From contig JAGVXF010000007.1 of NCBI GenBank assembly GCA_018303925.1, positions 56,775 through 120,774 of the forward strand: a DNA stretch of 64,000 bases, given 5' to 3'. Positions 24,601-44,809 of the stretch are shown piece by piece. Within the stretch, counting starts at the first letter, position 1. Each line of letters starts with the position of its first letter. The DNA comes from Candidatus Pacearchaeota archaeon. Its GTDB lineage: Archaea; Nanobdellota; Nanobdellia; Pacearchaeales; GW2011-AR1. The position numbers and the translations under genes were made by a program. Under the pieces are notes generated by a model that was not told the origin of the DNA, did no database searches, and saw only the letters and a list, made by a program, of their open reading frames with translations.

Positions 24601-27600
24601 ATGAAAAAAAATTTAACATTAATTAGTTTAATGTTAGGTGTTATGATTGTTTTGATGGTTGGAGCAGTTAGTGCTGTGACTTATGGTCCAATAGGTTCCG
24701 ATTATTCATTGTGTACACACGATGGAGCATCCGATTGGATTTGTACTTCCGAAGTTCACGTTAACGACTCTTCTTATGCAAATATGGATGAAGAAGAAGA
24801 GGTTCAGGGTAGATGGAATGCAGTAATTCCTACAAACGCGGTTGTGACAAGTGTTAAAGTATATGTTGAAGGTATGGAAACTGACCCAAATGTGGAAGCA
24901 AACATTCAATTATGGAGTACAGATACTCAGGAATCTTTGACAGACTATCAAGCTTTTTCACACAACAACTGGCAGACTAAAACATTCCAAGATTCTGATT
25001 TGACTGATTATGTTCAGTCAAAAGTTTCTGCAGGGCAGCCTATAAAATTGGAATTAGATATAGAAGGTGAAAATGACGATGAGAATCACAATGAGATTCT
25101 TATTGATTATATCCATCTTAAAATTACTTATGAAATTCCAGAATGTCCTTTTGAACCACAAGATGGAAGAACAATAGTCCATTTTAGTCCTAGTGATAAA
25201 ATATTATCCTCGGGAAGTTCTGCTGATGCTCAAACTGATAATGAATCGGTTGACTTGGCTGCAGGAAAATATGGGGTTTCTCTTTACTCTTGGGATTATG
25301 GTGTAAACAGGGCAACTCAGAGTCAGCCAAATGAAGAATATTTTGTATTCTTCTATGATTCCTCTGGGAATCTTATAGCTCAATCAAGCGATTCTACGGA
25401 TTTGGCAGACAATGTTATTTTCGCGGATTGGGAAGGACAGGTTGATACAAATTTGGTTTTGTCAGGGGCAGTGGAAGATGTTCAAGGTTTCCATGCGGTT
25501 TATCCTGATGGATCAAGTCCAAACAGCTTAGTTGCTGAATGTGCGGCTTTTGATTTTATAGAAGAACCATGTAGTTTGGAAGTAACTAATCCTGAAGAAG
25601 GAGATTGGTTTGACAACGAGTCTGTTCCAATTAATTGGACTCTTAGTGAAGGTTGTCAATCTATTGTTCATTCATCACTTTACTATTACAATTCTGTAAA
25701 TGGAGAGTGTAATACCCAAGGTCCTTGGAATGAGATAGCAATTCAAGTCTCATCTGCAAATACTGTTGTGAACCCTCCTTTTGAACATGGTTATTTGTGG
25801 GATAAACCTTCAGAAAGTGGGCAATACTGTGTCTATGTAGAAACTCATTCATCGGGTGTAAAAGGATATTCAGAAGTTTTCAATGTTGATCATGCAAAAC
25901 CCTATGTAAATTTAAGTGTGGGAAGTCCTCAAACAGGAACATGTACTGAAGCTGACGGAGAGATTTGTTGGGTTAAACCGAACACTCCTATAACTTTGAC
26001 TTGTCAGGATAACAATCCTAATGAGCCTTGGCAGTCTGGTCCAGATGAAATCTGGTACAGTATAAATGAGGGTCCAGTACAACTTTACACTGGTGCGTTT
26101 AGTTTCCAAACGGATTCTGAACATGACCTAGAATATTGGTGCTTTGATAAAGTGGACAAAGAATCTGAACATAAGTTCAAAGATTTCTTTGTGAACTCTG
26201 AATCTCCAACAATAACAAAAACTGTTGGAGAGCCAAAGGTTAACGCTTCAAGTGAGGAATTTGACTGGTATGTAAATACTGGCACAAAGATTTGCTTGTC
26301 TGCAACTCAAGGAAATCCTACGCATCCAACTCCTGGAGGAGTTGTAATTGATTGTGGGTACACTTATTCCTTAGATAATACAAATTGGGATAAAATACAA
26401 CACGTATCTTTTGATGAAAACGGATGTTTTAGTTATCTTGAAGATTCTTGGCATGAACTTAGTTGTACAGCAACTGATGCTTTAGGAAACACAGCTTTCC
26501 TTTCAGAGAAAGACATTGTGGATTCACAAGGTCCAACGACAACGTGGGATCATGAAGGGCCATACTATTCTTCTGAAAATGGAAAGTGGGTTGACGGTAT
26601 TTCAAATATAACTTTGAGTGCAACAGATCCAGATTCACATCCAGTAGGGGTTGACAAAATTTACTACAGATACACTGTAGTCAATGATGACTATTGTTAT
26701 GGAAAACTCGAAGGTTTTGAAGAACCCGAAAGGTGGAACCAGGATTGGACAGTTTATACTGAACCATTTGGACTTCCAGAATCATGTCATGTGATTGAAT
26801 ATTACTCTAATGATTTGTTGGGTAATAGTGAAGGAATTCATCATGAATTTATCTTTTCAGATCACACTGCTCCTGTTTTGACTAAACTAGTTGGAGAACC
26901 AAGTACTCCTAAGAATGAAAATCCTCTTGAGAACTGGTACGAAAACGAAGGTCAAAAAATTGAGTGGGCAGTTACAATGGACACCCCAATTGAGATAAGT
27001 TGCGAGGATTCAAGTCCTCACCCTTCCGGAATTGGAAATACTCAAGGAAGTGGAATTTATTGGAGGGTAGTTCTAGATGGGGAATATAATTCTTCATCTG
27101 CACAATGGCAGAACTCAAGTACAGACCATGTAACAATATGGTTTAAAGAGCAATCTGAACACCTACTTGAATTTTACTGTGTTGATAATGTTGGAAAGAA
27201 ATCTGAAACAGATTCAGAACTTTTCAAAGTCATAGGAAGTTCATTTGACTTGATAATTGGAGATAAATGGGACTTAATTTCAGTTCCATTCAATTTGTTG
27301 AGTAATGATATAGATGAAGTTTTCGGGAATAATTCAGACATTACAGGCATATGGGGTTACGACCCTTCAACAGGATGGCATTTGTATGCGCCTGGTGTTA
27401 CCGAAGATGATTTGACAACAATTGAACCCGGACACGGTTATTGGATAAAAACTGACAGCGAAACTACTGTTTTAATAGGGGGTAGTTTATTTAGCCCTCA
27501 AAGTGTTCCTGCTGCAGTTGAACTTCAGAATGGTTGGAATTTAATAGGTCACTACGGAACTTCAAACAAGAATTCGTGGTGTAGCCTTTTCTCATTAGTA

Positions 27601-27774
27601 GATACTTCAGTTGGTTTTCCAAGATGGAGTTCCTTATGGGGATACGATTCACCTTCACAAGATTTCGTTCCATTAAGCGCCTATGACAATACAAACCCAG
27701 GAAGAGGTTATTGGGTTGAAATGGATGTGAATGACACATATGTTCCGTCTTCAATTTGCTGGGGACTTAATTAA
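24601..27774 (+). CDS. Giant secreted Cys-rich surface protein (1057 aa)
   Basis: Signal peptide (MLGVMIVLMVGAVSA). Many paired Cys and numerous N-x-S/T sequons. SD-like aaggagg 16 nt upstream. Shares an approximately 100-aa domain with the 28849 ORF. Confidence 0.7.
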   Translation: MKKNLTLISLMLGVMIVLMVGAVSAVTYGPIGSDYSLCTHDGASDWICTSEVHVNDSSYANMDEEEEVQGRWNAVIPTNAVVTSVKVYVEGMETDPNVEANIQLWSTDTQESLTDYQAFSHNNWQTKTFQDSDLTDYVQSKVSAGQPIKLELDIEGENDDENHNEILIDYIHLKITYEIPECPFEPQDGRTIVHFSPSDKILSSGSSADAQTDNESVDLAAGKYGVSLYSWDYGVNRATQSQPNEEYFVFFYDSSGNLIAQSSDSTDLADNVIFADWEGQVDTNLVLSGAVEDVQGFHAVYPDGSSPNSLVAECAAFDFIEEPCSLEVTNPEEGDWFDNESVPINWTLSEGCQSIVHSSLYYYNSVNGECNTQGPWNEIAIQVSSANTVVNPPFEHGYLWDKPSESGQYCVYVETHSSGVKGYSEVFNVDHAKPYVNLSVGSPQTGTCTEADGEICWVKPNTPITLTCQDNNPNEPWQSGPDEIWYSINEGPVQLYTGAFSFQTDSEHDLEYWCFDKVDKESEHKFKDFFVNSESPTITKTVGEPKVNASSEEFDWYVNTGTKICLSATQGNPTHPTPGGVVIDCGYTYSLDNTNWDKIQHVSFDENGCFSYLEDSWHELSCTATDALGNTAFLSEKDIVDSQGPTTTWDHEGPYYSSENGKWVDGISNITLSATDPDSHPVGVDKIYYRYTVVNDDYCYGKLEGFEEPERWNQDWTVYTEPFGLPESCHVIEYYSNDLLGNSEGIHHEFIFSDHTAPVLTKLVGEPSTPKNENPLENWYENEGQKIEWAVTMDTPIEISCEDSSPHPSGIGNTQGSGIYWRVVLDGEYNSSSAQWQNSSTDHVTIWFKEQSEHLLEFYCVDNVGKKSETDSELFKVIGSSFDLIIGDKWDLISVPFNLLSNDIDEVFGNNSDITGIWGYDPSTGWHLYAPGVTEDDLTTIEPGHGYWIKTDSETTVLIGGSLFSPQSVPAAVELQNGWNLIGHYGTSNKNSWCSLFSLVDTSVGFPRWSSLWGYDSPSQDFVPLSAYDNTNPGRGYWVEMDVNDTYVPSSICWGLN

Positions 27775-27927
27775 AACAATTTTTTATTTTTTTTATTTTT
27801 CTTTTTATTTTTTTATTGAGGGACGGGAGTCTTTTAAAATACAAAAATTGTGGGGATGTGAGTAGTGACAAAAAATAACCCTATTCACTATAATAATACT
27901 TTTAAACTAATTACTTGTCGCTTTTTT

Positions 27928-28752
27928 ATGAGAAATGAAATTTTGGTAGTATTTTTGCTTCTAATTTCAGTTGGTTTTATCAGTTTTATTTCAGCTGTTC
28001 CTCCAGAACCAATGGCTTTTTATGGAAATGTGAGTATGAATGGAACTTTAATTCCAAATGGATATTACTTAACTGCAAAAATTAATGAGATAGTCAGTGG
28101 GCAGTGTGAAGTCATTAATGGAATATATGGGATGGGCGAAAACACTTGCATAGTTCAGAGTTATTCCTCAAATAAAGTTAAATTTTATTTAGGGAATAAT
28201 TTTTTGGGAGAATATCCTTTTCAGGGAAAAGAAATTGTAAATTTAAATTTTCAAACAGATTCCCTCCCTTCTAATTTTACTCCTCTTTCAAATGGAGTTT
28301 GTGAACCTTCAAAGGGAGAGTGTTCTTACAATTTGTTGGATTGCGGAAATTCAATAACAACAGTTTGTGTCGGAAATGGAATTTGTGATTCAAATATTGG
28401 AGAGACATGCTCAAATGCCCCTAATGATTGTGGGGCTTGTCAAACAACAACCCCTCCCGGTGGAGGAGGCGGTGGAGGAGGCGGAGGCTCTGGTGGAGGA
28501 GGTTCATCTTCAGGAGTAACAACTCCGGTGGATGTTCAGTTTTTAGGGGATAATTCTCAAAATCCAGGTTCCAGTGAGGGGGAGAATAATAATCAACTTT
28601 CAAACGAAACCTCTCAAAAAGAAAAAATTTTTGGAATTACAGGATTAGCAATTGGTGAATTTGCAGGAACTACCCTAGGAATAATCACAATTATTATTTT
28701 AGTATTGGTCCTTCTTGGAATTCTTTACTATTTTTTCTTTGGAAAAAAATAA
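27928..28752 (+). CDS. Membrane-anchored Cys-rich surface protein with poly-Gly linker
   Basis: Probable start at MRNEILVVFLLL (signal peptide). Cys-rich module CGNGICDSNIGETCSNAPNDCGAC. G10SG4S3 linker. C-terminal TM anchor IITIIILVLVLLGILYYFFF. Confidence 0.6.
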   Translation: MRNEILVVFLLLISVGFISFISAVPPEPMAFYGNVSMNGTLIPNGYYLTAKINEIVSGQCEVINGIYGMGENTCIVQSYSSNKVKFYLGNNFLGEYPFQGKEIVNLNFQTDSLPSNFTPLSNGVCEPSKGECSYNLLDCGNSITTVCVGNGICDSNIGETCSNAPNDCGACQTTTPPGGGGGGGGGGSGGGGSSSGVTTPVDVQFLGDNSQNPGSSEGENNNQLSNETSQKEKIFGITGLAIGEFAGTTLGIITIIILVLVLLGILYYFFFGKK

Positions 28753-28848
28753 CCTGATATTTCTTTTTTTTTGGGTGGAAATTTAAAGTATATTTTTTAG
28801 GATAATAATCTTTTTAAGTTGCAGTCATTACAGAATTAATATTAGAAA

Positions 28849-30141: not shown

Positions 30142-30170
30142 ATTCTAAAATAAAAACTTTTATATAGGGG

Positions 30171-30593: not shown

Positions 30594-31319
30594 GTGAAAA
30601 TGAACAAAAAAGCACAGTTTTATTTTTTGGCAATAATTCTTCTTGCCGCAATTTTTATAGGATTTGTTACAATTTCAAATAAAACAGTTTATACAGGCGC
30701 CCTAAAACTTTCTCATACTGAAGCGAGCATAAATTCAGAGATTTCAAGCCTTCTTGATTATTTTTCAAGAGAGCAAATTTCTGATTCAACCCAAAAAACA
30801 ATTCTGACTGATTTCTCTGTTTCTTATATAAATGAGATTGGAATAGATAAGGATGTTTTTTTTATTTTTGGAAAATTCCCCACGGTGACCTTATCCGGGA
30901 ACAGAGTTACCGGAACAAATCTGTCAGTTAACACAGGAAGCGGGGATATCTATGTTAATAATGTGGGAATTTTTCAAACAGATTATACTCTTTCAGGGAC
31001 TAACGTTACTAAAGTGAGTCTTGACGGAGTTGAGTACAATTTTACTTTTTACTCGGGACAAAATGTTTATTACCTTCTAAAAGCAGTTTCAAATAACCAA
31101 ACTTTTATATCCAGCGGAGGAACACTTTCAAGCCAGTTGATTGATTACTGCAACGACGGGGTTTTTGACAATGGAGAGGAAGGGCTTGACTGCGGAGGAA
31201 GCTGTCCAAATGAATGTGAGTACGATACATGTAATCAGAATAGCCTTCAGGACAATGGAGAAACAGGAGTGGATTGCGGAGGAGGAATCTGTCCCCCATG
31301 CGATTTTGTAGGAGTCTGA
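30594..31319 (+). CDS. Pilin-like (class III signal peptide candidate) Cys-rich surface protein
   Basis: N-terminus MKMNKKAQFYFLAIILLAAIFIGFV: a basic stretch followed by a hydrophobic helix, as in archaeal type IV prepilins (possible KKA/Q cleavage). The C-terminus has two NG-EEG-DCGG-C modules. Confidence 0.5.
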   Translation: MKMNKKAQFYFLAIILLAAIFIGFVTISNKTVYTGALKLSHTEASINSEISSLLDYFSREQISDSTQKTILTDFSVSYINEIGIDKDVFFIFGKFPTVTLSGNRVTGTNLSVNTGSGDIYVNNVGIFQTDYTLSGTNVTKVSLDGVEYNFTFYSGQNVYYLLKAVSNNQTFISSGGTLSSQLIDYCNDGVFDNGEEGLDCGGSCPNECEYDTCNQNSLQDNGETGVDCGGGICPPCDFVGV

Positions 31320-31361: not shown

Positions 31362-31772
31362 ATGAAATTCAAATTTTTAGCCCATACAGCAGATTTAAAA
31401 TTTAAAGCTTACGGAAAAACCGTCGAGGAAGTTTTTATTAATTCGGCAAAAGCGCTTATGAGTCAGATATTTTCGGGAAGAGTGAAAGAGAAAGAAAAAA
31501 TAAAAATAAACCTTTCAGGAAAAGATTATGAAAGCCTCTTGTATAATTTTTTGGAGGAAATTATTTTCTTGATTGATTCGAAGGGATTTCTGGTTTCGGA
31601 AGTCAAAGATTTAAAAATTGACAAAAAGAGTTTTAAGCTCTCAGGAGTTTTTGAAGGGGATTCAGGAGAAAACTATGAGGTTCACACGCATATTAAGGCT
31701 GTAACTTACAATGAAATGTTTGTAAAGCGTGAAAGAGGAAAGTGGGTTAGCCAGGTTGTTTTGGATGTTTAA
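31362..31772 (+). CDS. Archease (RtcB activator)
   Basis: N-terminal FLAHTADLKFKAYG matches the archease HTAD motif. Size and profile are typical of archease. RtcB lies 1.4 kb downstream. Confidence 0.85.
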   Translation: MKFKFLAHTADLKFKAYGKTVEEVFINSAKALMSQIFSGRVKEKEKIKINLSGKDYESLLYNFLEEIIFLIDSKGFLVSEVKDLKIDKKSFKLSGVFEGDSGENYEVHTHIKAVTYNEMFVKRERGKWVSQVVLDV

Positions 31773-31824: not shown

Positions 31825-32607
31825 ATGATAAATGAAATAATCAGACCAATTGTCAAAGTGGGAAACAGTTCAGGGGTGGTTTTGCCTAAGAACTGGTACG
31901 GGGGAAAAGCAAAGATTGAACTTGTTGAGAAACCGCTCAATATAAAAAAAGATCTTCTTGAAATTTTAGAAGGATATCTTGCAAAAGTTTTGGGAGTTTA
32001 TCTTTCCGGAAGTTATGCGAGAGGGGAGGAAAAAGAAAGTTCGGATGTGGATGTGTTAGTTATAACTTCAGATTTAAATAAAGTGATAAAAAAAGGAAAA
32101 TATTATATAATTTTAATTTCAAAAAAGATTTTAGAAAACACCCTTAAAAAAAACGTTTTGCCTCTTCTCCCCATGGTTAAAGAAGCAAAAACTATTTTGA
32201 ATGAAAGCCTGATTCGAGAATATAAAGGAACCCTTTTAACAAAAAGGAATTTGAAGTTCCATCTTGAAACCACAAAGTCTGCTCTTGAAATTAACAAGTC
32301 TTTAGTTTTACTGGATAAAGAAAAGAACTTGAATTCTTCGGATGGGGTTTCTTATTCTCTTGTTCTTAGATTAAGAGGAGTTTACATTGTTGATTGCCTG
32401 ATTAAAAATAAGATGTGGTCAACAAAAGAATTAAAGAATCTTATAAAAAAAGTATCTGGTTCTTCAGAAGCATATTCCGGGTACCTGCGTGTTAAAAATG
32501 ATGAGAAGAATCAGGAGAACCTGAAAACTGAAGAAGCCGAAAAAATCATAAATTATGTTTCCAAGAAAATCAATGAACAGGAAAAATGGCTAAGAAAAAT
32601 AAAATAG
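31825..32607 (+). CDS. MazE/AbrB-like swapped-hairpin domain fused to a minimal nucleotidyltransferase (MntA-like), paralog 1
   Basis: N-terminal VKVGNSSGVVLPKNW (MazE/SpoVT-AbrB-like). NTase motif GSYARGEEKESSDVDVLV (GS...D.D). C-terminal helical domain. About 35-40% identical to the 34880 ORF. Confidence 0.6.
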   Translation: MINEIIRPIVKVGNSSGVVLPKNWYGGKAKIELVEKPLNIKKDLLEILEGYLAKVLGVYLSGSYARGEEKESSDVDVLVITSDLNKVIKKGKYYIILISKKILENTLKKNVLPLLPMVKEAKTILNESLIREYKGTLLTKRNLKFHLETTKSALEINKSLVLLDKEKNLNSSDGVSYSLVLRLRGVYIVDCLIKNKMWSTKELKNLIKKVSGSSEAYSGYLRVKNDEKNQENLKTEEAEKIINYVSKKINEQEKWLRKIK

Positions 32608-33215: not shown

Positions 33216-34622
33216 ATGGAAAACTTCAGGCATGAAATAAAAAAAGAAGATGAAATGAATGTTTCGGGAGTAATTTATGCATCTGAAAAAATTTACGAGG
33301 CAATTAAGAAAGACAAAACTATTGAGCAGGTTAAAAATGTCGCAAAACTTCCGGGAATTGTCCGTGAGTCAATTGCACTCCCTGACTGCCATCAAGGTTA
33401 TGGTTTTTGCATCGGGGGGGTTGCTGCTTTTGACTTGAAGAAAGGGGTGATTTGCCCTGGGGGCATAGGGTATGATATAAATTGCTCGGTAAGATTACTC
33501 AAAACGAACCTTAAAAAAGAGGATATTTTAAAAAAACAAAAAGAGGTTCTTGAAACCCTTTACAAGAAAATTCCGTCAGGGGTTGGTCACGGGAGTCCTT
33601 TTCAGATTAGTTACAAAGAACTGGATAAACTTTTAGATAGGGGAGCAAAATATATGATTGAAAAAGGTTACGGAATTCCCGAAGATTATTTATACAGTGA
33701 GGAAGAAGGATGCATGAAAAATGCTGATTCCCAAAAAATTTCAAAAAGAGCAAAGCAAAGAGGGATTGGGCAAATAGGGACGATTGGCGCCGGAAATCAT
33801 TTTTTAGAAGTCCAAAGTGTTGAAGAAATTTATGACAAAAAAACCGCCGAAGTTTACGGACTCTCTAAAGGGCAGATTGTAGTGATGATTCATTGCGGTT
33901 CAAGGGGGCTTGGTCATCAGGTTGCGTCGGATTATATTAAGTTAATGGAAGATAAATATGGAATAAAAAATCTGCCTGACAGGGAATTAATAAACGCACC
34001 GATAAATTCTGAATTAGGAAAAGATTATTTTTCAGCAATGGGTGCTGCTGCAAATTTTGCTTTTGCTAATAAACAGCTTATTACATATTGGGTTCGTGAG
34101 GCTTTAACAAATTTATTTTACGAAAAGAAAGTAAAGGTTGAAGTTCTTTATGATGTTTGCCACAACATAGCAAAGATTGAAGAGTATTTTGTGGGGGGTA
34201 GAAAAGTGAAAGTTTGTGTCCATAGGAAGGGCGCAACAAGGGCATTCGGAAAAGGAAGAATTGAAATTCCTGAAAAATACAGGAGCGTTGGGCAACCCGT
34301 TTTAATTCCGGGCTCAATGGGAACAGCATCCTATGTAATGGTTGGGCGCAAGAAATCAGAAGAATTAACCTTTGGTTCATCTGTTCACGGCGCCGGAAGA
34401 CTCATGAGTAGAAGTCACGCAGTAAAAAACCTTAACGGAGAAAAAATAAAAAAGGACCTGAAAAAGATAGGTGTTGAAGTTGGCGTCGGGAGTCTCAGAG
34501 GGTTAACAGAGGAAGCTCCAGAAGTTTACAAAGATATAGACGAAGTTGTAAGAGTTGTTGATTCACTTGGAATTAGTCAAAAGGTTGCAAGAATGAAACC
34601 TTTGATTGTTATTAAGGGATAA
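33216..34622 (+). CDS. rtcB: RNA-splicing ligase RtcB
   Basis: Full RtcB motif set in order: PDCHQGYG, GYDINCSVR, GNHFLEVQ, CGSRGLGHQVA, CHNIA, HRKGATRA, GSMGTASY and VHGAGR. Confidence 0.95.
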   Translation: MENFRHEIKKEDEMNVSGVIYASEKIYEAIKKDKTIEQVKNVAKLPGIVRESIALPDCHQGYGFCIGGVAAFDLKKGVICPGGIGYDINCSVRLLKTNLKKEDILKKQKEVLETLYKKIPSGVGHGSPFQISYKELDKLLDRGAKYMIEKGYGIPEDYLYSEEEGCMKNADSQKISKRAKQRGIGQIGTIGAGNHFLEVQSVEEIYDKKTAEVYGLSKGQIVVMIHCGSRGLGHQVASDYIKLMEDKYGIKNLPDRELINAPINSELGKDYFSAMGAAANFAFANKQLITYWVREALTNLFYEKKVKVEVLYDVCHNIAKIEEYFVGGRKVKVCVHRKGATRAFGKGRIEIPEKYRSVGQPVLIPGSMGTASYVMVGRKKSEELTFGSSVHGAGRLMSRSHAVKNLNGEKIKKDLKKIGVEVGVGSLRGLTEEAPEVYKDIDEVVRVVDSLGISQKVARMKPLIVIKG

Positions 34623-34679: not shown

Positions 34680-34880
34680 ATGGGCAAAGACATCAAACAT
34701 ATGAAGAAACTGCGCAAAAAAAGATTAAAATCGTTTAGAAAGCAAGTGGAAAAACACGAGGAAAAAATTGAAAATGAGAAGGGAAGGTTTGATACAACCA
34801 AAGATTACTGGGAAAAAGAAATAGATGAAAAATTTTTAAAAAAGATCGAAGAAGATGAAAATTATCTGGAGGAAAAATAA
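34680..34880 (+). CDS. Small basic protein (66 aa), paralog of the 32586 ORF
   Basis: Shares the conserved KSFRK.VEKHEEKIEN..G.....YWEKEI core with the 32586..32765 ORF. Its stop codon overlaps the ATG of the downstream NTase gene. Confidence 0.4.
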   Translation: MGKDIKHMKKLRKKRLKSFRKQVEKHEEKIENEKGRFDTTKDYWEKEIDEKFLKKIEEDENYLEEK

Positions 34881-35653
34881 TGGAAATACAAATTAAAAAG
34901 GCTGTCAAATCGGGGAATTCTTCAGCTGTAATTCTTCCAAAATCATGGTTGAATAAAGAAGTCCGAGTTGAACTTGTTGAAAAGTCCCCCGAAAAAATTC
35001 TTTCCGAAGTTCTGAATATTGTTGGAAATTATCTTGATTTAAAAAAGATAATAGGAGTTTATCTTGTGGGAAGTTATGCCCGTGGAGAAGAAGATGAGGG
35101 AAGTGACATTGATATTCTGGTTCTAACTGATGATTTAGACAGAAAGATGATTTCCAAAGGAGAGTATAATGTTTTAATCTTGTCTTCAAATCTATTAAAA
35201 CAAAAATTAGATAGGGATCTTCTCCCTATTGGGCCAATGATTCGAGAAGCGAAGCCTCTTTTGAATCTTAGCTATCTTGATTTAATAAAAGTAGAGGTTA
35301 CAAAAAAGAATGTTTCTTGGTACCTTCAAACTACAAAAGACAAATTAAGAATCATAAAAAGTATCCTTTCCAGAACAAAACTTAAATTTCTCGATAGTAG
35401 AATTGCTTATACTTTGGTTTTGAGAATAAGGACTCTTTATTTAATTAATAAGATGATAAAAAATGAAAAACCGTCAAAAAAGGAACTTATAGAAATAATA
35501 AAAAGCACTTCCGGAGGAGAAAATGCTTACAGAGGATATTTGGATGTAAAAAATAATTCAAAGAAAAAAAGAGAAATCAGCTCAGATGAAGCTCGGGGGC
35601 TGTATGATTATTTGAAGAATCTTTTATCTGATATTAAGATGCAATTAAACTGA
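34880..35653 (+). CDS. MazE/AbrB-like domain fused to a minimal nucleotidyltransferase (MntA-like), paralog 2
   Basis: N-terminal VKSGNSSAVILPKSW. NTase motif GSYARGEEDEGSDIDILV. Same architecture as the 31825 ORF. Confidence 0.6.
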   Translation: MEIQIKKAVKSGNSSAVILPKSWLNKEVRVELVEKSPEKILSEVLNIVGNYLDLKKIIGVYLVGSYARGEEDEGSDIDILVLTDDLDRKMISKGEYNVLILSSNLLKQKLDRDLLPIGPMIREAKPLLNLSYLDLIKVEVTKKNVSWYLQTTKDKLRIIKSILSRTKLKFLDSRIAYTLVLRIRTLYLINKMIKNEKPSKKELIEIIKSTSGGENAYRGYLDVKNNSKKKREISSDEARGLYDYLKNLLSDIKMQLN

Positions 35654-35937
35654 TTTTATATGGGCACAAATTTTATAAATATGAAATAATCGGAGGATCT
35701 GCAAAGAATATTTCTGAAAATCTAAAGAAAAAATATTACAAAATTGAATGGAGAGAAATTGTGAGGGCAAGAGATTTAATTGTCCATAGTTCTTTTAAAA
35801 TTGATTCCGATGCAATTTTTGGGATTATGGAAAAAGATTTTCCGATTTTAAAAGATCAAATTGATGAAATTTTGGAGAGCGGATGTGAATTCAAAAAAAC
35901 AAAAATATTTATAAAACACTTTAACCTAATTTTTAAA
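35638..35937 (+). pseudogene. HEPN (HepT/DUF86-type) C-terminal remnant without a start codon
   Basis: The open frame reads ...KYEIIGGSAKNISENLKKKYYKIEWREIVRARDLIVHSSFKIDSDAIFGIMEKDFPILKDQI..., which matches the HepT C-terminal half (IIGEA.KNLSE..K..YP.I.W..I.G.RN.LVH.Y..ID...VW). The roughly 40 aa of N-terminal HepT sequence is missing, and there is no ATG, GTG or TTG at a sensible position. It overlaps the NTase stop and ends at the start of the giant gene. Confidence 0.45.
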
Positions 35938-38900
35938 TGATAAAAGAGGGAAAGGTAATCTTTAGTTTATTATTTTTGCTAATCTTTGTTGTTGTGATTT
36001 TTTCAAGTTCATTTGTTTTAGGAGAATTAACATGTGCTGGGGGGACATTGACGGGAACTTACGCAGGATGTGATGGAGATTATGAGAATACCCAAACAGG
36101 AAGTTGCTGGTATAGACCCCCAATTTACTACCCCAATGGAACTGCGATGTACAATTTCAAGAGTTTGGGTCTTCGGGCAGAAGTTTATTGTTGGAATTTT
36201 GAAACTCCCGCTTTGTGTGGTTCCAATGACGAATATTGTAAATGGTATCATGGGCAAAATTCTTGTTATGGTCTGAGTCAGGAAAATTGCGGGTCAATAT
36301 ATTATCCTACTTGTTCTCCCCAATATTCAGATTATACCTGCTCTTGTCCTTTAGGGCAGCACAGTGATTTGGCAAGTACCCCTTTTGCATCATGCAGTGG
36401 AACTTTTGTGGAAAATTATACATCTAGTTATTGTTATTGGAGGGAGGGTGTAAAGGCTAATGCCATAAGTCAAGGTGAGTATTGCAGTTATTCTGATGCC
36501 GGTTCTTGCAGAGGTGCCGATGAATTCTGTGAATGGAATATCTTATCTTACTCAGCTACTTTTTCATGTATTGGATTTAATGAGCAAACATGTATGTTTA
36601 CTTCAGGATGCGTAGCGTCTTATGATACCAATTATCAATGTGTTTCAAATACATGCTCAGATACCGATGGGGGTTATGTTCCCGAAATACAAGGAACAGT
36701 TAGCGCTCAAAGTGGGGATACTGGGACAGATTTTTGTGAGGATGGTTATTTTTTAACTGAGTATTATTGTTCGAATAGTGTCGGATTCTCAGGACAGGAA
36801 ACCTGTAACTTTGGTTGTTTAAATGGAGAGTGCAAGCCTGTTCCTTGCCCAAGTTCTCAAGAAGGGGTAAATGGAGGAAACCTTGGATGTATTGATAAAA
36901 TAATTTCTAATTCTCATATTATTTATTCAACTTCTTCATGTACTAGTTTAAGTCAAATTTGTTCTGCATGTAATTCGGGTTATTATCCTTCTTATGATTA
37001 CGCTACAGAATCTTATATTTGTCACGCTATCCCTGATACTTGCTCTGACAGCGACGGGATGAATTATAATACCCGAGGGACCGTGAATGCAAGTAGGGGA
37101 TATTCAGGAACTGATTATTGCGCTGATTCCGGGGGAGACCCAGGGGCTCCAACTTCAGAAGGGGATATTTTATGGGAGTTTGGATGTTCAGGAACGACCG
37201 GAGTTAAAAATATTTATGGGGATTGCCAGTATGGATGTTCAGAGGGAAAGTGTAATCCTACTCCTCCCCTCCCAGATTGTCCTGTTACCCAAACTGGAAC
37301 TATATATGTAGGATGTGTACAGGATCAAGATATAAATTCAAATCTAATTAACTATGCCCATTCAACAAATGATTTATGTAGTGATGAATATGTGTGTTTT
37401 CAATGTAATTCAGGATACATCTGGGACGGAAATAATTGTGTTCTTAAATGTCCAAGTCCACAACCAGGAACGAGCGGGGGAAATTTGGGATGTTTAGAAA
37501 ATCAGGTTTTATATTCTTACGTTTTGTATCCCACCTCTTCATGTACTAGTTTAAGTCAAATTTGTTCTGCATGTAATTCTGGTTATTATCCTTCTTATGA
37601 TCACGCTACAGAGTCTTATATTTGTGTTCCTGTGTCTATTTCATGTACGGATACAGATTTAGGTCAAGCTTATCCTGAATATTTCAAAGGGTCTCTAACT
37701 GCAACGACGGGGATAACAAATGGTATGGATAATTGTGCAGATTCAACACATTTAAATGAATATTTTTGTGATGCATCAAACCGAGGTTCACTTGATTCCA
37801 ATCATCTTTGCCCAAAAAACTATGGTTGTAATAGTGGCGCATGCAGAGACTTTTATTTTGTTGGCACATCAGATGGTAATAAAATTTTATCTTTAGGTCA
37901 GGGAACAACTCTTCCTAAGACGATTAAATTTGTTGGTTCAGCTTATTCAGGGTCAGGAGGAGGGTCTTTTTCACTTTATGAAAGGGCTTGGACAAATGAA
38001 TTCTGGGGATGGTGTGATATTTGTGCAGCAGATACTCTTGTTGGGACTTATTCAGGAAATACTCAGGATTTTAACGGCGATGGGGTTAATGATTATTTAA
38101 GTGACAGTTGGACTTTAAATTCAAATGTTTTAAATTCTTTAGAATCTGATGGGCCGTATGACAAGTATGAATTTTATTTTAAAGTTGGTTCTTATCAAAG
38201 TTCTGGTTTGTTGGTTGATCCAAGTCTTGACACCTGCCACGACGAAATTCAAAATGGTGGCGAAGAAGGTATTGATTGTGGTCCTGTGTGTGGAAATGAA
38301 TGTCTTTTTTGTCAGGACAGCGATGGAGGGCAAATTTATGATGTTCAAGGAAGGATAATTGCAAACAATGGGTTACATACAAGCGGGACAGATTTTTGTG
38401 ATGATTCAACTCATTTAAATGAATATTATTGTAGTGCTGCTAATGCAGGTTCTTTAGAGATACGCCACTATTGTGGGGCTGGAAATGCATGTTCAAATGG
38501 AGTTTGCACAGGAGAGCAAATTCCTAATTCAATTGTTTATTGGGCTTATAAAACCTATCAGGAGGCACCCGGATATTTAGAGGTATTAAACTCAAGTATT
38601 GGTTCTTTTGGAAGAAGATTAGTTTTAACTTATCCAGAACCTTCTCTTAGTTCATTTCAGATATTTAAAGAAAGCAATGCAATTTTTATTCCCGATACAT
38701 TGGTAAGAGAAGAGTATGGTTCATCATTTTCTAATTTTTATTTTTATGATTGGATTCCTTCTTATGCGGATTTTATGAATGCAGGAACTCCGACTTTTAG
38801 CAATAATACATATAGATTTTACTTTAAGGTGGACGATGGAGATAGTCGTTTAACAAGCAATTATTGGGATGTTTATGTAATTGGAGAGGTTCCTTCATGT

Positions 38901-39545
38901 ACTGATGGAGCGCAGAATGGGGATGAGGAAGGAGTTGACTGTGGAGGAAGCTGTCCAAACGAATGTGAACCAGATATAGATCAGTGCCTTGGAATAGATT
39001 TTTGTATGGATTATACCAGCGAGGCGACATGTAATTTAGATAATTGTAGTGTTGCACAATATAGTGGTTATGCTCCTTCCGGTACAACTCCTTTGTGTAT
39101 TTGGTATTCGGTAGTTCCCGAGGAATGTATCTTTGGCTATTCAGGAAGTAATTATGGGGTTTGTATGCACCACGATAGCCCGACAAATGACAGTTGTGAG
39201 GATGACGGTTTTTTAACTCATATATGGACTAATGAATATTCCTGGGATTTAGATAATGCTTTTTCAACCCAGCAGGCATGTGAGGTTTATACATCTGAGT
39301 GTTCAGGCAATTGTGTCTTAAGGGGAAGTTCATGGCATTGTGATCCCAATGGAGAAGAAACAACGTGCTTAAATGGAGAAACTACTGCAACAATTCCATG
39401 CCCTGCTCAAATACAACTTGGATTTTTTGATTGGCAGAATGTGGTAGTTGCTATTCTTGTAATTTTCCTTTTGTATTTAATTCTTTTGAAGAATAAGAAG
39501 ACACAAACAGAAAAATCCTCGAAAGGCAAAAAGAGAAAAAAATAG
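35937..39545 (+). CDS. Giant secreted Cys-rich modular surface protein (1202 aa) with C-terminal TM anchor and basic tail
   Basis: Signal peptide. Four copies of an approximately 60-aa module C.D[ST]DG..GT....G.D.C.D...L.EY[YF]C...C..GC..G[AK]C. Two NG-EEG-DCGG-C-NEC modules. An approximately 200-aa tandem duplication. C-terminal TM AILVIFLLYLILL followed by KKTQTEKSSKGKKRKK. Confidence 0.7.
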   Translation: MIKEGKVIFSLLFLLIFVVVIFSSSFVLGELTCAGGTLTGTYAGCDGDYENTQTGSCWYRPPIYYPNGTAMYNFKSLGLRAEVYCWNFETPALCGSNDEYCKWYHGQNSCYGLSQENCGSIYYPTCSPQYSDYTCSCPLGQHSDLASTPFASCSGTFVENYTSSYCYWREGVKANAISQGEYCSYSDAGSCRGADEFCEWNILSYSATFSCIGFNEQTCMFTSGCVASYDTNYQCVSNTCSDTDGGYVPEIQGTVSAQSGDTGTDFCEDGYFLTEYYCSNSVGFSGQETCNFGCLNGECKPVPCPSSQEGVNGGNLGCIDKIISNSHIIYSTSSCTSLSQICSACNSGYYPSYDYATESYICHAIPDTCSDSDGMNYNTRGTVNASRGYSGTDYCADSGGDPGAPTSEGDILWEFGCSGTTGVKNIYGDCQYGCSEGKCNPTPPLPDCPVTQTGTIYVGCVQDQDINSNLINYAHSTNDLCSDEYVCFQCNSGYIWDGNNCVLKCPSPQPGTSGGNLGCLENQVLYSYVLYPTSSCTSLSQICSACNSGYYPSYDHATESYICVPVSISCTDTDLGQAYPEYFKGSLTATTGITNGMDNCADSTHLNEYFCDASNRGSLDSNHLCPKNYGCNSGACRDFYFVGTSDGNKILSLGQGTTLPKTIKFVGSAYSGSGGGSFSLYERAWTNEFWGWCDICAADTLVGTYSGNTQDFNGDGVNDYLSDSWTLNSNVLNSLESDGPYDKYEFYFKVGSYQSSGLLVDPSLDTCHDEIQNGGEEGIDCGPVCGNECLFCQDSDGGQIYDVQGRIIANNGLHTSGTDFCDDSTHLNEYYCSAANAGSLEIRHYCGAGNACSNGVCTGEQIPNSIVYWAYKTYQEAPGYLEVLNSSIGSFGRRLVLTYPEPSLSSFQIFKESNAIFIPDTLVREEYGSSFSNFYFYDWIPSYADFMNAGTPTFSNNTYRFYFKVDDGDSRLTSNYWDVYVIGEVPSCTDGAQNGDEEGVDCGGSCPNECEPDIDQCLGIDFCMDYTSEATCNLDNCSVAQYSGYAPSGTTPLCIWYSVVPEECIFGYSGSNYGVCMHHDSPTNDSCEDDGFLTHIWTNEYSWDLDNAFSTQQACEVYTSECSGNCVLRGSSWHCDPNGEETTCLNGETTATIPCPAQIQLGFFDWQNVVVAILVIFLLYLILLKNKKTQTEKSSKGKKRKK
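36933..37023 (+). repeat. Internal direct repeat copy A (about 91 nt) within the giant gene
   Basis: tcttcatgtactagtttaagtcaaatttgttctgcatgtaattcgggttattatccttcttatgattacgctacagaatcttatatttgt is repeated 603 nt downstream with 3 mismatches. Confidence 0.85.
37536..37626 (+). repeat. Internal direct repeat copy B (about 91 nt) within the giant gene
   Basis: Near-identical to 36933..37023 (g/t, t/c and a/g differences). It encodes SSCTSLSQICSACNSGYYPSYD(Y/H)ATESYIC in both copies. Confidence 0.85.
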
Positions 39546-39548
39546 ACG

Positions 39549-39995
39549 TTAATTATTATTTATAAATTTTATAATTTCTTCCTTGAATTTTTCAAAATCC
39601 TGCAACTTTTCTGACAAGATTTCATATATGATTTCGTTGTCGGTTTCCCCATATTTATGAACGAGAATATTTCTAAATCCTTTCATTCCCATCAATATTT
39701 CTTTTAATTCTTTTGAAATTACTCCTTTCTTGTAAGTTTTTTCTATTAGATCCTCTTCTCCCGAGGGGAGTCCCAATTTAAGCCCGGAAGTGATTATGTT
39801 TAGGATGTCAATAATTGTTTCTATAGATATTTGCAATAATCTTTCGCATGCCCTTTTATCTTTTATGGAATTTTTGTAAATTTCTAAATTTTCAGGAATT
39901 ATCTCTTCAAGTTCGGAAAGATATTTATTCAATTCATCTATCTTTGATAAAATCCTTTTATTATCTAATTTTGACATTTTCGAGGTAACTATCAT
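39549..39995 (-). CDS. HEPN-domain toxin-like protein (HepT/DUF86 family)
   Basis: C-terminal GFRNILVHKYGETDNEIIYEIL carries the R-x4-6-H HEPN motif (RNILVH). It lies downstream of, and overlaps, the MNT gene. Confidence 0.75.
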   Translation of the reverse strand: MIVTSKMSKLDNKRILSKIDELNKYLSELEEIIPENLEIYKNSIKDKRACERLLQISIETIIDILNIITSGLKLGLPSGEEDLIEKTYKKGVISKELKEILMGMKGFRNILVHKYGETDNEIIYEILSEKLQDFEKFKEEIIKFINNN

Positions 39996-40341
39996 AAATT
40001 TTTTTGTAGAATCCGAATTCTTTTATTGTTTCAAAAGCAATCTCGTACATTTTATCCTCATCTTTTATTAAAATAAATTTTCCTTCTTTTAATATTCTTA
40101 TCTTAATATAAACGGGCAATTGCTCAAATATATGAATATCTAATTTTGAATCGAATTTTGAAGCATATTTTAATTTTATTTTTGACATTTCTTTATTGCT
40201 TTTCTTTTCTTTTAAAACCAGCGCAATGTCAATATCCCGGTAATCTTCTTTTCTTGCATATGATCCAAACAAAGCAACAGCTAAAACTTCTTTGTCTTTT
40301 TCTGCTTCTTTAATAATCTTGGAGGTAATTTCTTTCATCAA
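39961..40341 (-). CDS. Minimal nucleotidyltransferase (MntA-like antitoxin)
   Basis: LFGSYARKEDYRDIDIAL (GS...D.D). 126 aa. Overlaps the downstream HEPN gene by 35 nt. Confidence 0.8.
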   Translation of the reverse strand: MMKEITSKIIKEAEKDKEVLAVALFGSYARKEDYRDIDIALVLKEKKSNKEMSKIKLKYASKFDSKLDIHIFEQLPVYIKIRILKEGKFILIKDEDKMYEIAFETIKEFGFYKKIYDSYLENVKIR

Positions 40342-41992: not shown

Positions 41993-42160
41993 ATTGTAAA
42001 TTGGATGAATTTTTTTGATAAATTTTTGTTTTTTAATAAATTTTTAATTGACTTGGTGGGTTATCCCGATTAACTTAGTTGGAAATTATTAGATAGCAAA
42101 TAAAATGGACAACCTCGAATTCAAAAATCTTTATAAATCTCTTTCTCTTGATTAGTATTA

Positions 42161-44809
42161 ATGAAAGAAAAAAGGGGAGGTAGTTATTTTTTAGCTGTAA
42201 TTCTATTTATCTTTTTAATTTCATATGTATCCGCATCTTATGAGTTTTCAAATCATTCAATTGAAACTCATTATTCAAAAGGCTCAACCATCTCAGGAAA
42301 TATTAATATTTCTTTTGAGAACGAATCTTTGAATTCTTTTTTTGAAGATTCATTTGATAACAAGGTTTACCTTAAAGATTTACTCGGAGGTTCGAATTCA
42401 TATTTATACAACTGTACTTCCAAGAAATGTTCTTCATCATATGTTCTTTCAAACCCATCAAGTTCCAAAACTTTTTCTCTTCCAAAAGGTGAAGAAAAGA
42501 CCTTTGGATTTGTGATTCAGGGAAATATTCAGAACATAAATTCGGTTTCTTTTTTGCTTTCAAGCACTGCTCCCGCGTCAGATTTAAATCAGATAAAAAT
42601 CGATATTTTAGATGATGGAATTATTGATGCAGGAAACTCCAAAGCCGGAACTGCTTCGCAGAATGTGAATTATGGTTGTTATAATGCAAGCGAGGGGCCA
42701 AACGAGATAAACCTTATAACTACTCCTTTTTGCCAGAATATAACTGTATATGAATCTCCGGGTCTGCTTCTTGGAGGATTTTTTAAAAAAGTCTCAGACG
42801 GGTCAAATGGAATTGGATTGAATATTTACAATAAAAAAGGAGTTTCTCTTGGATCATGCAGAATTTTAAATTCAAGTGTCTCTTTTTCAGGAGGGAACTA
42901 TTTTTGCAGTGTGAATGTCTCTATACCTGAAACTAATAATTATTATATCTGTGCTTATGCAGAACAGGGAGAGGCCAAATACAAAACTCTTGGATATTCT
43001 TCTTTGTCATCAGGAAAAAATTGCGGTTTTTTAGGTTATTTAAGTTTTCCCCCCCAAAATGAAACTGCGGCATACAAGATAGGTCTGACCCCCTTAAAAT
43101 TTTCTTCTCCAAGTGCTCTTAATATCTCAAATGTCCTTCCAACTGGAGATTTAATCTCTTTACTCATCGGAGAATATCTCTCCAAAACTTATCCTGAAGG
43201 CTGCCTTGAGGGATGCAAGATCCCTTTAAAATTAGTTTCTTTTGAAGACCAGTCAATCACTTTAAACAGCCTGAAAGTCAGTTATGATGCAGAATCGCTT
43301 CCAGGTCTGGAGATTTCAACTTTTTATGATTTTGACATTCAAGACTCAAAAGTCAGTTCTCCAATGCAGTTACTTCCTCTTGACGGATTTTTTTATGTTT
43401 CTCAGTTAGGGTGGGATGAAAATTACACCCTCAAATTTAAAGGAGAAAAACTTTTTAGTGAAAAGATTTTCCTTGAAAACTTCTCCATTCAGATTTATCC
43501 CTTAAGATATGCTGTTAATTTTTCTGTTCCTTTTTTAATATTAAATTCTCAGGATGCGGGTTCACAGTATTATGAAATTGATTTTGGAGACAATTCCATT
43601 TCCACAACTTCGTCAAAATCTTTTTTGCACAAATATATTTCAGTTGGGAATTTTAGTTTAAAGGTTTCGTCTTATATAAACGGCACCAAATTAACAAAAA
43701 CCTTCAAAATAGAAATTCTTCCTTCAAAAAACTTTATTGACAATGAAATTAAAATCCAGAGGAGTTCCATTTCTTTTTTTAACTCACAGATATCTTTTAT
43801 GAATTCTTTTGAAAAGTCAGAAATAAACAGAATTTTTGAACTTGAGAACCTGACTACCACACTTAATTCAATTGAATCTTCTGTTTCTTTGGCGTCTTCG
43901 GATTCGGATTATGAGAAAATTTTCGGGAATTTAATCAGGCTTAATATTCCAAAGTCAATTACTCGCACAGTCTCCCAGGAAATCCCTTTTATTATTGAGG
44001 TAAATGAAATAAATCTGGATATCCTTAAGGATATAACCGAAGAAGACTATTCCCCTGCCGATGAAAGTGCTGATTATATTTCTTTTTGGGATTATGAAAA
44101 TCTTAATTCAAAAATCTCCTCTAACAATATTTTAGTTGAGACAGCAGACGGTTCAAAAGTTCCTCTTAATTTTTATGAGATTTCTATCTCTCCTAAAAAA
44201 AATATTAACCAGTCTTATTATTTTATTTTTCCAAATTCGGGGAATGCCAATTTTGAAGAAAATTCCGGAGTTGAGGCCGGGAGCGGGTATTCCTATTTTG
44301 AACTTGGAAACATTGAAAAAACTATAAGGTTTTCAACCGGGGAAGATTTTGGGTCGTATCATCCTTTTTTTATTGCCCCACAGAATGTTGAAGTTTTCGC
44401 AGGAGGGGACATTTCCGAACCCATGAATAATAACTGGATATTGATTTTAGTAATTCTGGGGGTTATTCTAATAGGGTTTTTAACTTATTACATTATGCAC
44501 AGGTGGTATGCTGTTAAGTATGAAAATTATCTTTTCCCTGATAAAAACCACCTTTACAATGCAATTTTTTATATAAATAATTCATTAAAGAATGGAATGG
44601 AAGAGAGTGAAATAAGAAAGAGTCTGCTTGATGCTGGATGGAAAAATGAGCAGGTTGTTTACTTAATAAAAAAGCATTCAGGAAAGAATCCGGGGATGTT
44701 TAATCTGTTTGGTTCTTCAAGTGAAAAGGGATCCTCAAAAATAAATTCACCTCCAAAACCTGGAAGAAATGTGAATTATAAGGATTCAAATACAAAATTT
44801 AATAAATAA
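42161..44809 (+). CDS. Type-I membrane surface glycoprotein with PKD-like domain and cytoplasmic tail (882 aa)
   Basis: Signal peptide. Dense N-x-S/T sequons. PKD-like YYEIDFGDNSIS...HKYISVGNFSLKVS. TM WILILVILGVILIGFLTYYI followed by an approximately 110-aa cytoplasmic segment. Confidence 0.6.
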   Translation: MKEKRGGSYFLAVILFIFLISYVSASYEFSNHSIETHYSKGSTISGNINISFENESLNSFFEDSFDNKVYLKDLLGGSNSYLYNCTSKKCSSSYVLSNPSSSKTFSLPKGEEKTFGFVIQGNIQNINSVSFLLSSTAPASDLNQIKIDILDDGIIDAGNSKAGTASQNVNYGCYNASEGPNEINLITTPFCQNITVYESPGLLLGGFFKKVSDGSNGIGLNIYNKKGVSLGSCRILNSSVSFSGGNYFCSVNVSIPETNNYYICAYAEQGEAKYKTLGYSSLSSGKNCGFLGYLSFPPQNETAAYKIGLTPLKFSSPSALNISNVLPTGDLISLLIGEYLSKTYPEGCLEGCKIPLKLVSFEDQSITLNSLKVSYDAESLPGLEISTFYDFDIQDSKVSSPMQLLPLDGFFYVSQLGWDENYTLKFKGEKLFSEKIFLENFSIQIYPLRYAVNFSVPFLILNSQDAGSQYYEIDFGDNSISTTSSKSFLHKYISVGNFSLKVSSYINGTKLTKTFKIEILPSKNFIDNEIKIQRSSISFFNSQISFMNSFEKSEINRIFELENLTTTLNSIESSVSLASSDSDYEKIFGNLIRLNIPKSITRTVSQEIPFIIEVNEINLDILKDITEEDYSPADESADYISFWDYENLNSKISSNNILVETADGSKVPLNFYEISISPKKNINQSYYFIFPNSGNANFEENSGVEAGSGYSYFELGNIEKTIRFSTGEDFGSYHPFFIAPQNVEVFAGGDISEPMNNNWILILVILGVILIGFLTYYIMHRWYAVKYENYLFPDKNHLYNAIFYINNSLKNGMEESEIRKSLLDAGWKNEQVVYLIKKHSGKNPGMFNLFGSSSEKGSSKINSPPKPGRNVNYKDSNTKFNK

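Follow-up and report, generated by a model that had tools for sequence, protein, structure and literature searches.

The region described here occupies positions 24601-44809 of a 64 kb window (the window being the whole stretch of DNA that was analysed) from a groundwater metagenome, and belongs to a Candidatus Pacearchaeota archaeon of the DPANN group. Exact sequence matches put the window on groundwater metagenome contigs of up to 176 kb, and in NCBI the products of RtcB, ArgRS, C, E, F and G carry this organism's name (MBS30844xx; AQS312xx is entered as 'uncultured archaeon'). Seven open reading frames (ORFs) on its + strand, which we label A to G, were read by the original prediction as seven consecutive genes for giant secreted proteins that make up a single 20 kb cell-surface island. 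The ORF listing confirms all seven at the predicted positions and lengths (Table 1), and hydropathy places an N-terminal hydrophobic, signal-like segment in every one of them (7/7). The biggest products, at 1057 to 1202 residues, are large but not giant, however, and the genes are not consecutive: archease, the RNA ligase RtcB and two nucleotidyltransferase (NTase) paralogs lie between D and E, and a minus-strand HepT/MNT pair lies between E and F. The right-hand boundary drawn at 44809 also cuts an operon-like block, G-arvA-arvB-arvC, and it is the membrane protein G, together with its neighbour E and the small-GTPase system ArvABC, that forms the main subject of what follows.

Relatives of the region were compared as a set of about 170 loci (L-numbers denote single loci). 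When GTDB species genomes were scanned with a degenerate pattern, G relatives appeared in at least 286 species, the best 80 of which constitute the G-anchored set; an ArvA-anchored set contains 65 metagenome loci with at least 400 nt of upstream sequence. Signal segments and transmembrane topology were assigned by a hydropathy heuristic only and composition by script, with 54 pooled ORFs of the same window as the background for cysteines and sequons. Pfam and NCBIfam were scanned with the seven proteins and ten excised modules, the proteins were compared by all-against-all BLASTP, and AlphaFold2 models of A and G were built from homolog alignments.

Table 1. Features of the window in order of position, with the basis of each assignment
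Feature	Positions	Strand	Basis and remarks
tRNA (second of two)	5523-5620	-	Rfam, 56.8 bits
Secreted SNase + LTD protein	22243-23031		Synteny with L093
145-aa ORF	23862-24299		
Conserved leader/promoter upstream of A	24350-24600	+	DNA alignment with L094 and L093 (9750-10000 in each)
A, 1057 aa, secreted, all-beta, no transmembrane anchor	24601-27774	+	ORF listing, hydropathy, NCBIfam, AlphaFold2
B, 274 aa	27928-28752	+	ORF listing, hydropathy, homology to L094/L093 genes
C, 430 aa	28849-30141	+	ORF listing, hydropathy, BLASTP against A
D, 241 aa, pilin-like	30594-31319	+	Class III-like signal, homology to L093/L094 pilin-locus gene
Archease	31362-31772	+	Pfam Archease 6e-37; between D and E, not a surface gene
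AbrB-like + NTase gene	31825-32607	+	Pfam NTP_transf_2 4e-09; between D and E, not a surface gene
RtcB RNA ligase	33216-34622	+	Pfam RtcB 5.6e-167; between D and E, not a surface gene
Second NTase-domain paralog	34880-35653	+	43.6% identical to the 31825-32607 gene (BLASTP)
E, 1202 aa, 7.2% Cys	35937-39545	+	Hydropathy, internal repeats, homology to genes beside G
HepT	39549-39995	-	Pfam HepT-like 4e-28; toxin-antitoxin with MNT, between E and F
MNT	39961-40341	-	Pfam Polbeta 1.8e-15; toxin-antitoxin with HepT, between E and F
F, 497 aa	40499-41992	+	Pfam, NCBIfam, family profile
G, 882 aa, single-pass membrane protein	42161-44809	+	Homologs, AlphaFold2, tail conservation
ArvA/OapA small GTPase	44828-45472	+	Pfam MMR_HSR1 4e-16, Arf 1.4e-4; PF01926 type, cf. 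PMC10927574
ArvB/OapB	45474-45881	+	Pfam OapB 9e-17
ArvC/OapC zinc-ribbon protein	45963-46358	+	Pfam OapC 3.1e-20

The general properties ascribed to the seven proteins hold in part. A C-terminal transmembrane anchor, thought to be present in most, is found in B, C, E and G (4/7) and not in A, D or F. High cysteine content is a feature of five proteins that stand above the 0.82% background (A 2.1%, B 3.6%, C 4.2%, D 3.3% and E 7.2%) and not of F (0.2%) or G (1.1%). Sequons of the NxS/T type are indeed dense, at 1.0-2.1 per 100 residues in six of the seven against a background of 0.54 (2-4 fold), but their numbers equal the expectation from each protein's own Asn, Ser and Thr content and E is even depleted (7 observed, 14 expected); because composition alone predicts the observed counts, N-glycosylation enrichment was dropped as a special feature. 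The domain searches that had been suggested gave no more than a weak PKD match in G, an OmpL47-type domain in A and a Por_Secre_tail domain in F, while LTD, LNR and cohesin matched none of the seven proteins or ten excised modules and CARDB appeared only in C, at an E value of 0.14. A search of PDB sequences with A and E gave no usable match.

Both flanks of the region are syntenic with relatives, the upstream flank through ArgRS, Pyr_redox and SNase-LTD and the downstream flank through ArvABC, CCA, TrmB, SPP, CPSF and the proteasome. What lies between them is best described as a syntenic chromosomal neighbourhood, complete with housekeeping genes, in which three modules of differing conservation have had different histories: the A-B-C cassette, the pilin-like gene D, and E, F and G with the Arv genes. 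This description is well supported, and we begin with the third of the modules.

G has a signal, four beta-sandwich domains, a PKD domain (443-520), a helical bundle (522-592) and a mixed domain (597-740), followed by a transmembrane helix (758-791) and about 100 cytoplasmic residues, which comprise the three-helix tail (795-839) and a basic, disordered end. All of these folded elements (beta-sandwiches, PKD, helical bundle, mixed domain, transmembrane helix and cytoplasmic three-helix domain) appear in the AlphaFold2 model, which has a predicted local distance difference test (pLDDT) score of 78.2. The Pfam match to the PKD domain is sub-threshold, both the PKD fold and the PKD sequence signature are present, and the NCBI annotation is 'PKD domain-containing protein'.

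Full-length homologs of G are 25-34% identical to it, and every locus inspected reads G-ArvA-ArvB-ArvC. Of the best 80 G loci, 77 contain ArvA (76 on the same strand), and of the three without it two have no more than 90 nt of downstream sequence. Counted over genome loci, G stands immediately upstream of arvA in 77 of 78. Read from the other side, 64 of the 65 ArvA-anchored metagenome loci have a gene with a G-type tail directly upstream. Between the G stop codon and the arvA start codon the median distance is 52 nt, and 130 of 143 loci have 100 nt or less; in the window it is 18 nt. Such short gaps indicate co-transcription. The window ArvA has an amphipathic-looking N-terminal segment.

The part of G that faces the cytoplasm is also its most conserved. 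Mean pairwise identity is 50.7% in the tail as against 24-38% in the regions of the ectodomain, and W782, Y783, Y787, E788, L791 and F792 are invariant. When the 69-residue tail was searched against 1.84 billion representatives, 861 50%-cluster representatives were matched, and the full-length proteins among them are nearly all 840-1000 residues long with the G architecture and the tail at about 780-860. Rates differ strongly within the block, since ArvA is 79-93% identical among metagenome relatives, against about 30% for the G ectodomain and about 50% for the tail. As a separate observation, one 125 kb JGI (Joint Genome Institute) contig from a population of >90% identity carries G as two shorter ORFs, P0037 (481 aa) and P0040 (307 aa), which reflect either the degradation of this copy by a frameshift or a faulty assembly.

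The Arv proteins have been studied in Haloferax volcanii, where knockout of ArvA strongly lowers the formation of extracellular vesicles and where ArvB and ArvC also affect vesiculation (PMC10927574). ArvA is found in 7 phyla of the DPANN group, Nanoarchaeota among them, and ArvB is directly downstream of it in 93% of genomes (PMC10927574); that study (Mills et al. 2024) looked solely at the genes downstream and does not speak of a membrane partner encoded upstream. The window ArvA, OapB and OapC genes have the same order as those of H. volcanii and are likewise tightly spaced. The differences are that here a single-pass, PKD-containing protein of about 880 residues precedes arvA in some 98% of loci, that a cysteine-rich anchored protein of the E family often precedes G in turn, and that vesiculation has been seen for the Haloferax system whereas the DPANN ArvA is known here from its genes. 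A link between ArvABC and a surface protein with a conserved tail was not found in the searchable literature, and searches for Pacearchaeota surface proteins returned nothing specific.

E is made up of many internal repeats, which are disulfide-type modules, and its conserved C-terminal domain (about 1017-1168) ends with CPAQIQLGFF and is followed by a transmembrane helix and a basic tail. The last ~260 residues are homologous to cysteine-rich anchored proteins encoded beside G in two relatives, L008_421 (E value 2e-12) and L010_463 (3e-07), and the E-type C-terminal domain is present in 24 of the 80 G-anchored GTDB loci. The gene immediately upstream of G encodes a protein with at least 3% cysteine in 38 of 57 loci, and one that is both cysteine-rich and C-terminally anchored in 29 of 57; a juxtamembrane signature CPAQIxLPFFGxYN, a transmembrane helix and a basic tail are common to 29 genes upstream of G (L025-L092). 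By these similarities, E belongs to a family of cysteine-rich, membrane-anchored proteins usually encoded just upstream of G. The family's succession of motif, transmembrane helix and basic cluster repeats the three-part layout of PGF-CTERM/archaeosortase and PEP-CTERM/exosortase signals, but no NCBIfam CTERM model matches the family, nor does any match B, C, E or G at E values up to 0.1. The window contains no archaeosortase, its sole multi-pass protein being a presenilin-type signal peptide peptidase.

The A-B-C cassette has a very different distribution. No homolog of A, B or C lies within 10 kb of G in any of the 80 species of the G-anchored set, and only about 15 full-length relatives of A were found among 5.8 billion proteins, with 39-51% identity over the core (324-1057). 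The A-B-C gene order is nonetheless kept in at least three other genomes. L094 has a 947-aa A' followed by B' (61% identity over 175 aa) and C' (404 aa, 33% identity); L093 has A' (910 aa) and B' (298 aa, 28% identity), then three other genes and C' (432 aa); and the P0010 contig has genes of 1007, 290 and 363 aa, the last with DUF4215, in the same order.

A consists of a signal, an N-domain (30-180), a module shared with C (182-325), an Ig/FN3-like core and a C-terminal domain of about 190 residues that carries GWNLI...PGxGYW repeats. At residues 478-525 the model NF047446, for an OmpL47-type beta-barrel domain, scores 70.1 bits where its cut-off is 40, so that the statement that no family could be named for the large proteins needs amending for A; as a full-length OmpL47 equivalog, A scores 24.7 bits where 250 are needed. 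B has a signal, a beta domain of about 100 residues, a Cys module, a stalk rich in Gly, Ser and Asn, and the anchor; its start is taken as the ATG at 27928, which is backed by the homolog L094_310, over the GTG at 27865. In C the signal is followed by its copy of the A module (28-173); next come a region with weak resemblance to CARDB, the Cys modules and finally the anchor. The prediction that small modules are shuffled among the proteins is borne out here, as A182-327 aligns with C28-173 at 33% identity (E value 5e-18), and the N-domain, the A/C module and the C-terminal domain of A each recur separately on other proteins.

The all-beta AlphaFold2 model of A (pLDDT 77.5) matches TEP1, lambda gpJ, the Ig-like domains of PrgB and RbmA in Foldseek searches, and the fold searches of A and G alike return generic beta-sandwich strings only. 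Structure prediction thus yields chains of Ig/FN3/PKD/CBM-like beta-sandwiches, a general type met with in adhesins, receptors and envelope proteins. Both resemble the modular beta-sandwich adhesins and envelope proteins of bacteria and archaea, such as the PKD/FN3/Big-type strings of PrgB and RbmA, proteins with OmpL47-type domains and the Methanosarcina S-layer PKD protein 1l0q, in being Ig/FN3/PKD-like chains with signals. They differ from these in that the full-length proteins match no curated family and give global TM-scores of 0.1-0.2, because only single domains match, and G is further set apart by its helical bundle and its conserved cytoplasmic domain.

Upstream of A, some 250 nt are conserved as DNA in L094 and L093, although the A proteins themselves share only about 45% identity. 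This leader contains a perfect 14-bp palindrome, GTTATACGTATAAC, at 24491-24504, a strong RBS-like GGAGG (a ribosome-binding-site motif) and a conserved block, AAGTAATAACAAAAA..TATTTTCTC. Gene callers place an ORF of 55-59 aa within it (55 aa in the window), but it is more likely to be a non-coding promoter, operator or 5' leader; it matches no Rfam family. The palindrome is unique in the window, where 0.07 matches are expected at up to two mismatches, and with this single occurrence it was rejected as a regulon motif.

The second module is D, which was described as pilin-like. In support of this, its N-terminus, KKAQFYFLAIILL, resembles a class III (pilin) signal in which KKA|QFYFLAIILL fits the [KR][GA] cleavage context, although positions +2 to +4 are aromatic, and over its first ~170 residues D is a homolog of the gene that opens the series of five pilin-like genes in L093 (E value 1.6e-6) and L094 (1.6e-9). 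D thus shares with archaeal type IV pilus loci the homology to the first gene of a pilin array, and its [KR][GA]-Q-hydrophobic N-terminus resembles those of their pilins. It departs from them in having two extra Cys modules, and in that the ATPase and platform genes that form the core of such a locus, and the other pilins, are not in the window. By regular expression, D and E each contain CxDGxxNGxEEGxDCGGxCxxC twice, with the D copies at the C-terminus, and BLASTP aligns D186-211 with E988-1013 at 69% identity over 26 aa, a second instance of module sharing.

In L093 and L094 the order is D', four pilins, T2SSE and T2SSF, and in L008 and L010 it is T2SSE-T2SSF-T2SSF-two small genes-archease-RtcB-...-G-ArvABC. 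The window keeps the outer genes of the L008/L010 layout, with D directly followed by archease, and no match to T2SSE or T2SSF occurs anywhere in its 64 kb, which suggests that D is a remnant or relocated survivor of a pilus locus; by its sequence it would since have gained the two C-terminal Cys modules. We had also considered that D corresponds to the ~245-aa gene after T2SSF in L008 and L010, but there is no significant similarity, and it is the first pilin gene of L093 and L094 that matches instead. The pilus-like loci of the relatives (five pilin-like genes, T2SSE and two T2SSF) are at 17179-22733 in L093, 17019-22844 in L094, 1-2570 in L008 and 133-6102 in L010. One groundwater study described type IV pili components as missing in DPANN; Pacearchaeota relatives do, contrary to that description, carry pilus loci.

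Taking these observations together, we favour, with moderate confidence, the view that the 24.6-44.8 kb region is a syntenic envelope neighbourhood of three separately inherited modules, and that G and the E family are lineage-specific membrane partners of ArvABC. The envelope or adhesion role and the partnership with ArvABC are argued from guilt by association and from the conservation of the G tail. E, F and G form the front end of the operon-like block. As a type I membrane protein G would turn its fast-evolving ectodomain outward, its slowly evolving three-helix tail would contact the ArvA/B/C machinery, and the protein would link surface events with the remodelling of the membrane or with the budding of vesicles. 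In the first module, the absence of an anchor in A and its presence in B and C suggest a surface complex in which B and/or C would hold the secreted Ig/FN3-like chain of A on the cell, where it may serve in adhesion.

Several findings weigh against this view. The cca gene, which encodes the CCA-adding enzyme and is unlikely to be functionally related, is next after arvC in 57 of 59 loci and so equally locked to the block, which may therefore simply be frozen gene order in small genomes. ArvA occurs without G in Euryarchaeota and in other DPANN (PMC10927574), and so G is not needed for ArvA function in general. The gap between the ~83% identity of ArvA and the ~50% of the G tail is not the tight co-evolution that a binding pair predicts. 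For the A-B-C part, the module shared by A and C is modelled at low confidence (pLDDT <50 for A residues 182-321), and the rarity of the A family means that the cassette is not a universal envelope component.

The chief alternative holds that G is the main, S-layer-type envelope protein of the Pacearchaeales and Woesearchaeales and is merely co-transcribed with arvABC, standing before these genes by gene order or through a shared strong promoter, with no coupling to vesiculation and with a tail that serves for anchoring or cytoskeletal contacts. A protein that is near-universal in the clade and fixed in length and architecture is what this would produce, and the equal locking of the unrelated cca fits it too. 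There is, however, no specific match to a solved S-layer fold: Haloferax csg (7ptp) is found at a probability of 0.25, 1l0q matches through the PKD domain only, and neither A nor G matches an S-layer family in Pfam or NCBIfam. Nor does any of the seven proteins match a characterised S-layer or adhesin family, which upholds this part of the original prediction. A folded, highly conserved cytoplasmic domain is moreover unusual for archaeal S-layer proteins, and the very short G-arvA gaps also count against this explanation, which we consider doubtful.

A second alternative, which is compatible with the view we favour, concerns A, B and C, and supposes that they form a two-tier S-layer comparable to SlaA/SlaB of the Sulfolobales, with A as the canopy and B and C as anchored stalks with Gly/Ser-rich spacers. 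It would account for a cassette, conserved as a unit, in which a large all-beta protein that lacks an anchor comes first and smaller proteins with transmembrane helices at their C-termini come after it, and for the Gly/Ser/Asn-rich linker that precedes the helix of B; the occurrence of the C-terminal domain of A on the otherwise different proteins P0016, P0018 and P0020 is what would be seen of a docking domain. Yet A-family members are very rare and most relatives have none, there is no similarity to SlaA or SlaB in sequence or fold, and L094 has a paralogous A-like/B-like pair upstream of A', a duplication that fits variable adhesins better than a lattice protein. On balance a two-tier lattice seems unlikely.

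The single island itself, that is a 20 kb lineage-specific set of genes for seven surface proteins that was acquired or evolves as one and serves host attachment or an S-layer-like envelope, is improbable. Its attractions are plain: seven genes on one strand with signal-like N-termini, small Cys modules and one 145-aa module common to some members, adhesin-like folds, and an organism from a group, the Pacearchaeota, reported to be unusually strongly host-attached (bioRxiv 10.1101/2020.05.14.094862). But the genes are interrupted by archease, RtcB, the NTase paralogs and a toxin-antitoxin pair; GC content (~0.32-0.39) and GC skew are uniform with the flanks; F and G have no module in common with the other five proteins in the all-against-all BLASTP comparison; and the phyletic spread is uneven, G occurring in at least 286 GTDB species while A, B and C are found at none of the 80 G-anchored loci. 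Absence from close relatives thus holds for A-C and not for E and G, and the island is largely refuted by the synteny. What survives of the surface or envelope interpretation is that the proteins are predicted to be extracytoplasmic, are modular and mostly uncharacterised, have folds of adhesin or envelope type and belong to a reduced DPANN archaeon. Large, unannotated, cysteine-rich modular surface proteins are expected in DPANN genomes, and their occurrence is hence ordinary.

Among the interrupting genes, the HepT/MNT pair are the sole minus-strand genes of the region and are found in none of the 80 G-anchored loci, which points to a recent insertion into the E-F-G block. Neither of the NTase paralogs was found among the 80 G-anchored relatives; both flank RtcB, and an AbrB/SpoVT-like N-terminal motif, VKxGNSSxVxLPKxW, is fused to their nucleotidyltransferase domain.

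F, which was predicted to combine a dockerin with a domain of the type IX secretion system (T9SS), has a signal, a dockerin-like EF-hand pair (about 60-110), a central domain and a T9SS type A sorting domain (418-492). The last of these stands above its cut-offs (PF18962 Por_Secre_tail 36.4 bits against 27, 6e-9; TIGR04183 33 against 23 bits), occurs in 24 of 24 members of the F family and is recognised in the NCBI annotation, 'T9SS type A sorting domain-containing protein'. The dockerin is supported at the family level only, PF00404 matching F alone at an E value of 0.33 but 13 of the 24 family members, and the F-family profile matching PDB dockerins (E value 3.6e-6). F thus resembles bacterial T9SS cargo in its sorting domain and in its full-length homologs, which include Bacteroidetes proteins and one from Ignavibacteriae that is encoded on a 4.5 Mb contig and is 40% identical to F over 380 aa, and resembles cellulosomal dockerins, at the family level, in its calcium-binding repeat pair. 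It differs from such cargo in being encoded by an archaeon and in its central domain of about 250 residues, which matches no family. C151 and H212 are near-invariant in this domain, making a Cys-His hydrolase possible; the more specific idea, drawn from the C...H motif, of a transglutaminase-like Cys protease found no support in Pfam or PDB sequences. No cohesin was found in the scanned neighbours of the seven proteins, no T9SS machinery is among the Pfam and NCBIfam matches of the scanned ORFs (mainly 19-51 kb), and literature searches for T9SS domains in DPANN found nothing specific. Archaea are not known to have an outer membrane, and the C-terminal domain of F is therefore unlikely to serve a T9SS here; it is probably just a beta-sandwich.

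It is scarcely credible that F, or part of the region with it, came in through bacterial contamination or chimeric assembly. Such an origin might be suggested by its type A domain, of a kind that belongs to Bacteroidota/FCB bacteria, by its bacterial-style signal and by its 40% identity to Ignavibacteriae and Bacteroidetes proteins. Against it, an identical F is present on 21 contigs (the longest 176 kb) with archaeal genes on its flanks, its GC equals that of its neighbours, and a homolog of F immediately precedes the homolog of G in L011, L013, L015 and L016. These last are four other archaeal metagenome-assembled genomes, and the shared position argues for a retained old transfer rather than an artefact. 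F thus appears, from its homologs, to be an old inter-domain acquisition kept in one sublineage, in which it would have been inserted between E and G, and it documents a bacterial T9SS-CTD/dockerin protein (CTD, C-terminal domain) retained in archaea.

Three further features lie outside the region. The secreted SNase + LTD protein just upstream, which is syntenic with L093 and a candidate extracellular DNA-scavenging nuclease, belongs to the surface and secreted gene set although it falls outside the boundaries originally drawn. The 145-aa ORF has a Bacteroidetes-style signal peptide, MKWYYALPFLFLNNSFAQ, with no family detected and no match in the related loci. An Rfam scan of the whole window finds two tRNAs and nothing else; the second of these was not reported by ARAGORN, and its 98-nt span suggests an intron-containing archaeal tRNA.

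Returning to the proposed partnership of G and the E family with ArvABC at the membrane, a more explicit version can be proposed tentatively, and we think it rather unlikely to hold in full: that G is the transmembrane component of ArvABC in the Nanoarchaeia, probably together with an E-family protein, that its tail recruits or regulates ArvA, ArvB and ArvC, and that contact at the ectodomain triggers budding, vesicle release or a cytoplasmic bridge towards the host. If true, this would be a prokaryotic counterpart of the coupling between cargo tails and Arf GTPases, serving exchange between symbiont and host.

The plausible-looking island of the original prediction resolves, then, into modules with different histories, one of which bears on a wider question. 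DPANN archaea depend on hosts, and how they attach and exchange material with them is largely unknown. The ArvABC system of a haloarchaeon is the only mechanistic handle on small-GTPase vesiculation in archaea, one for which neither a membrane receptor nor a cargo partner is known. G provides a concrete candidate for such a partner, and with it a candidate link between surface recognition and membrane remodelling in these episymbionts.

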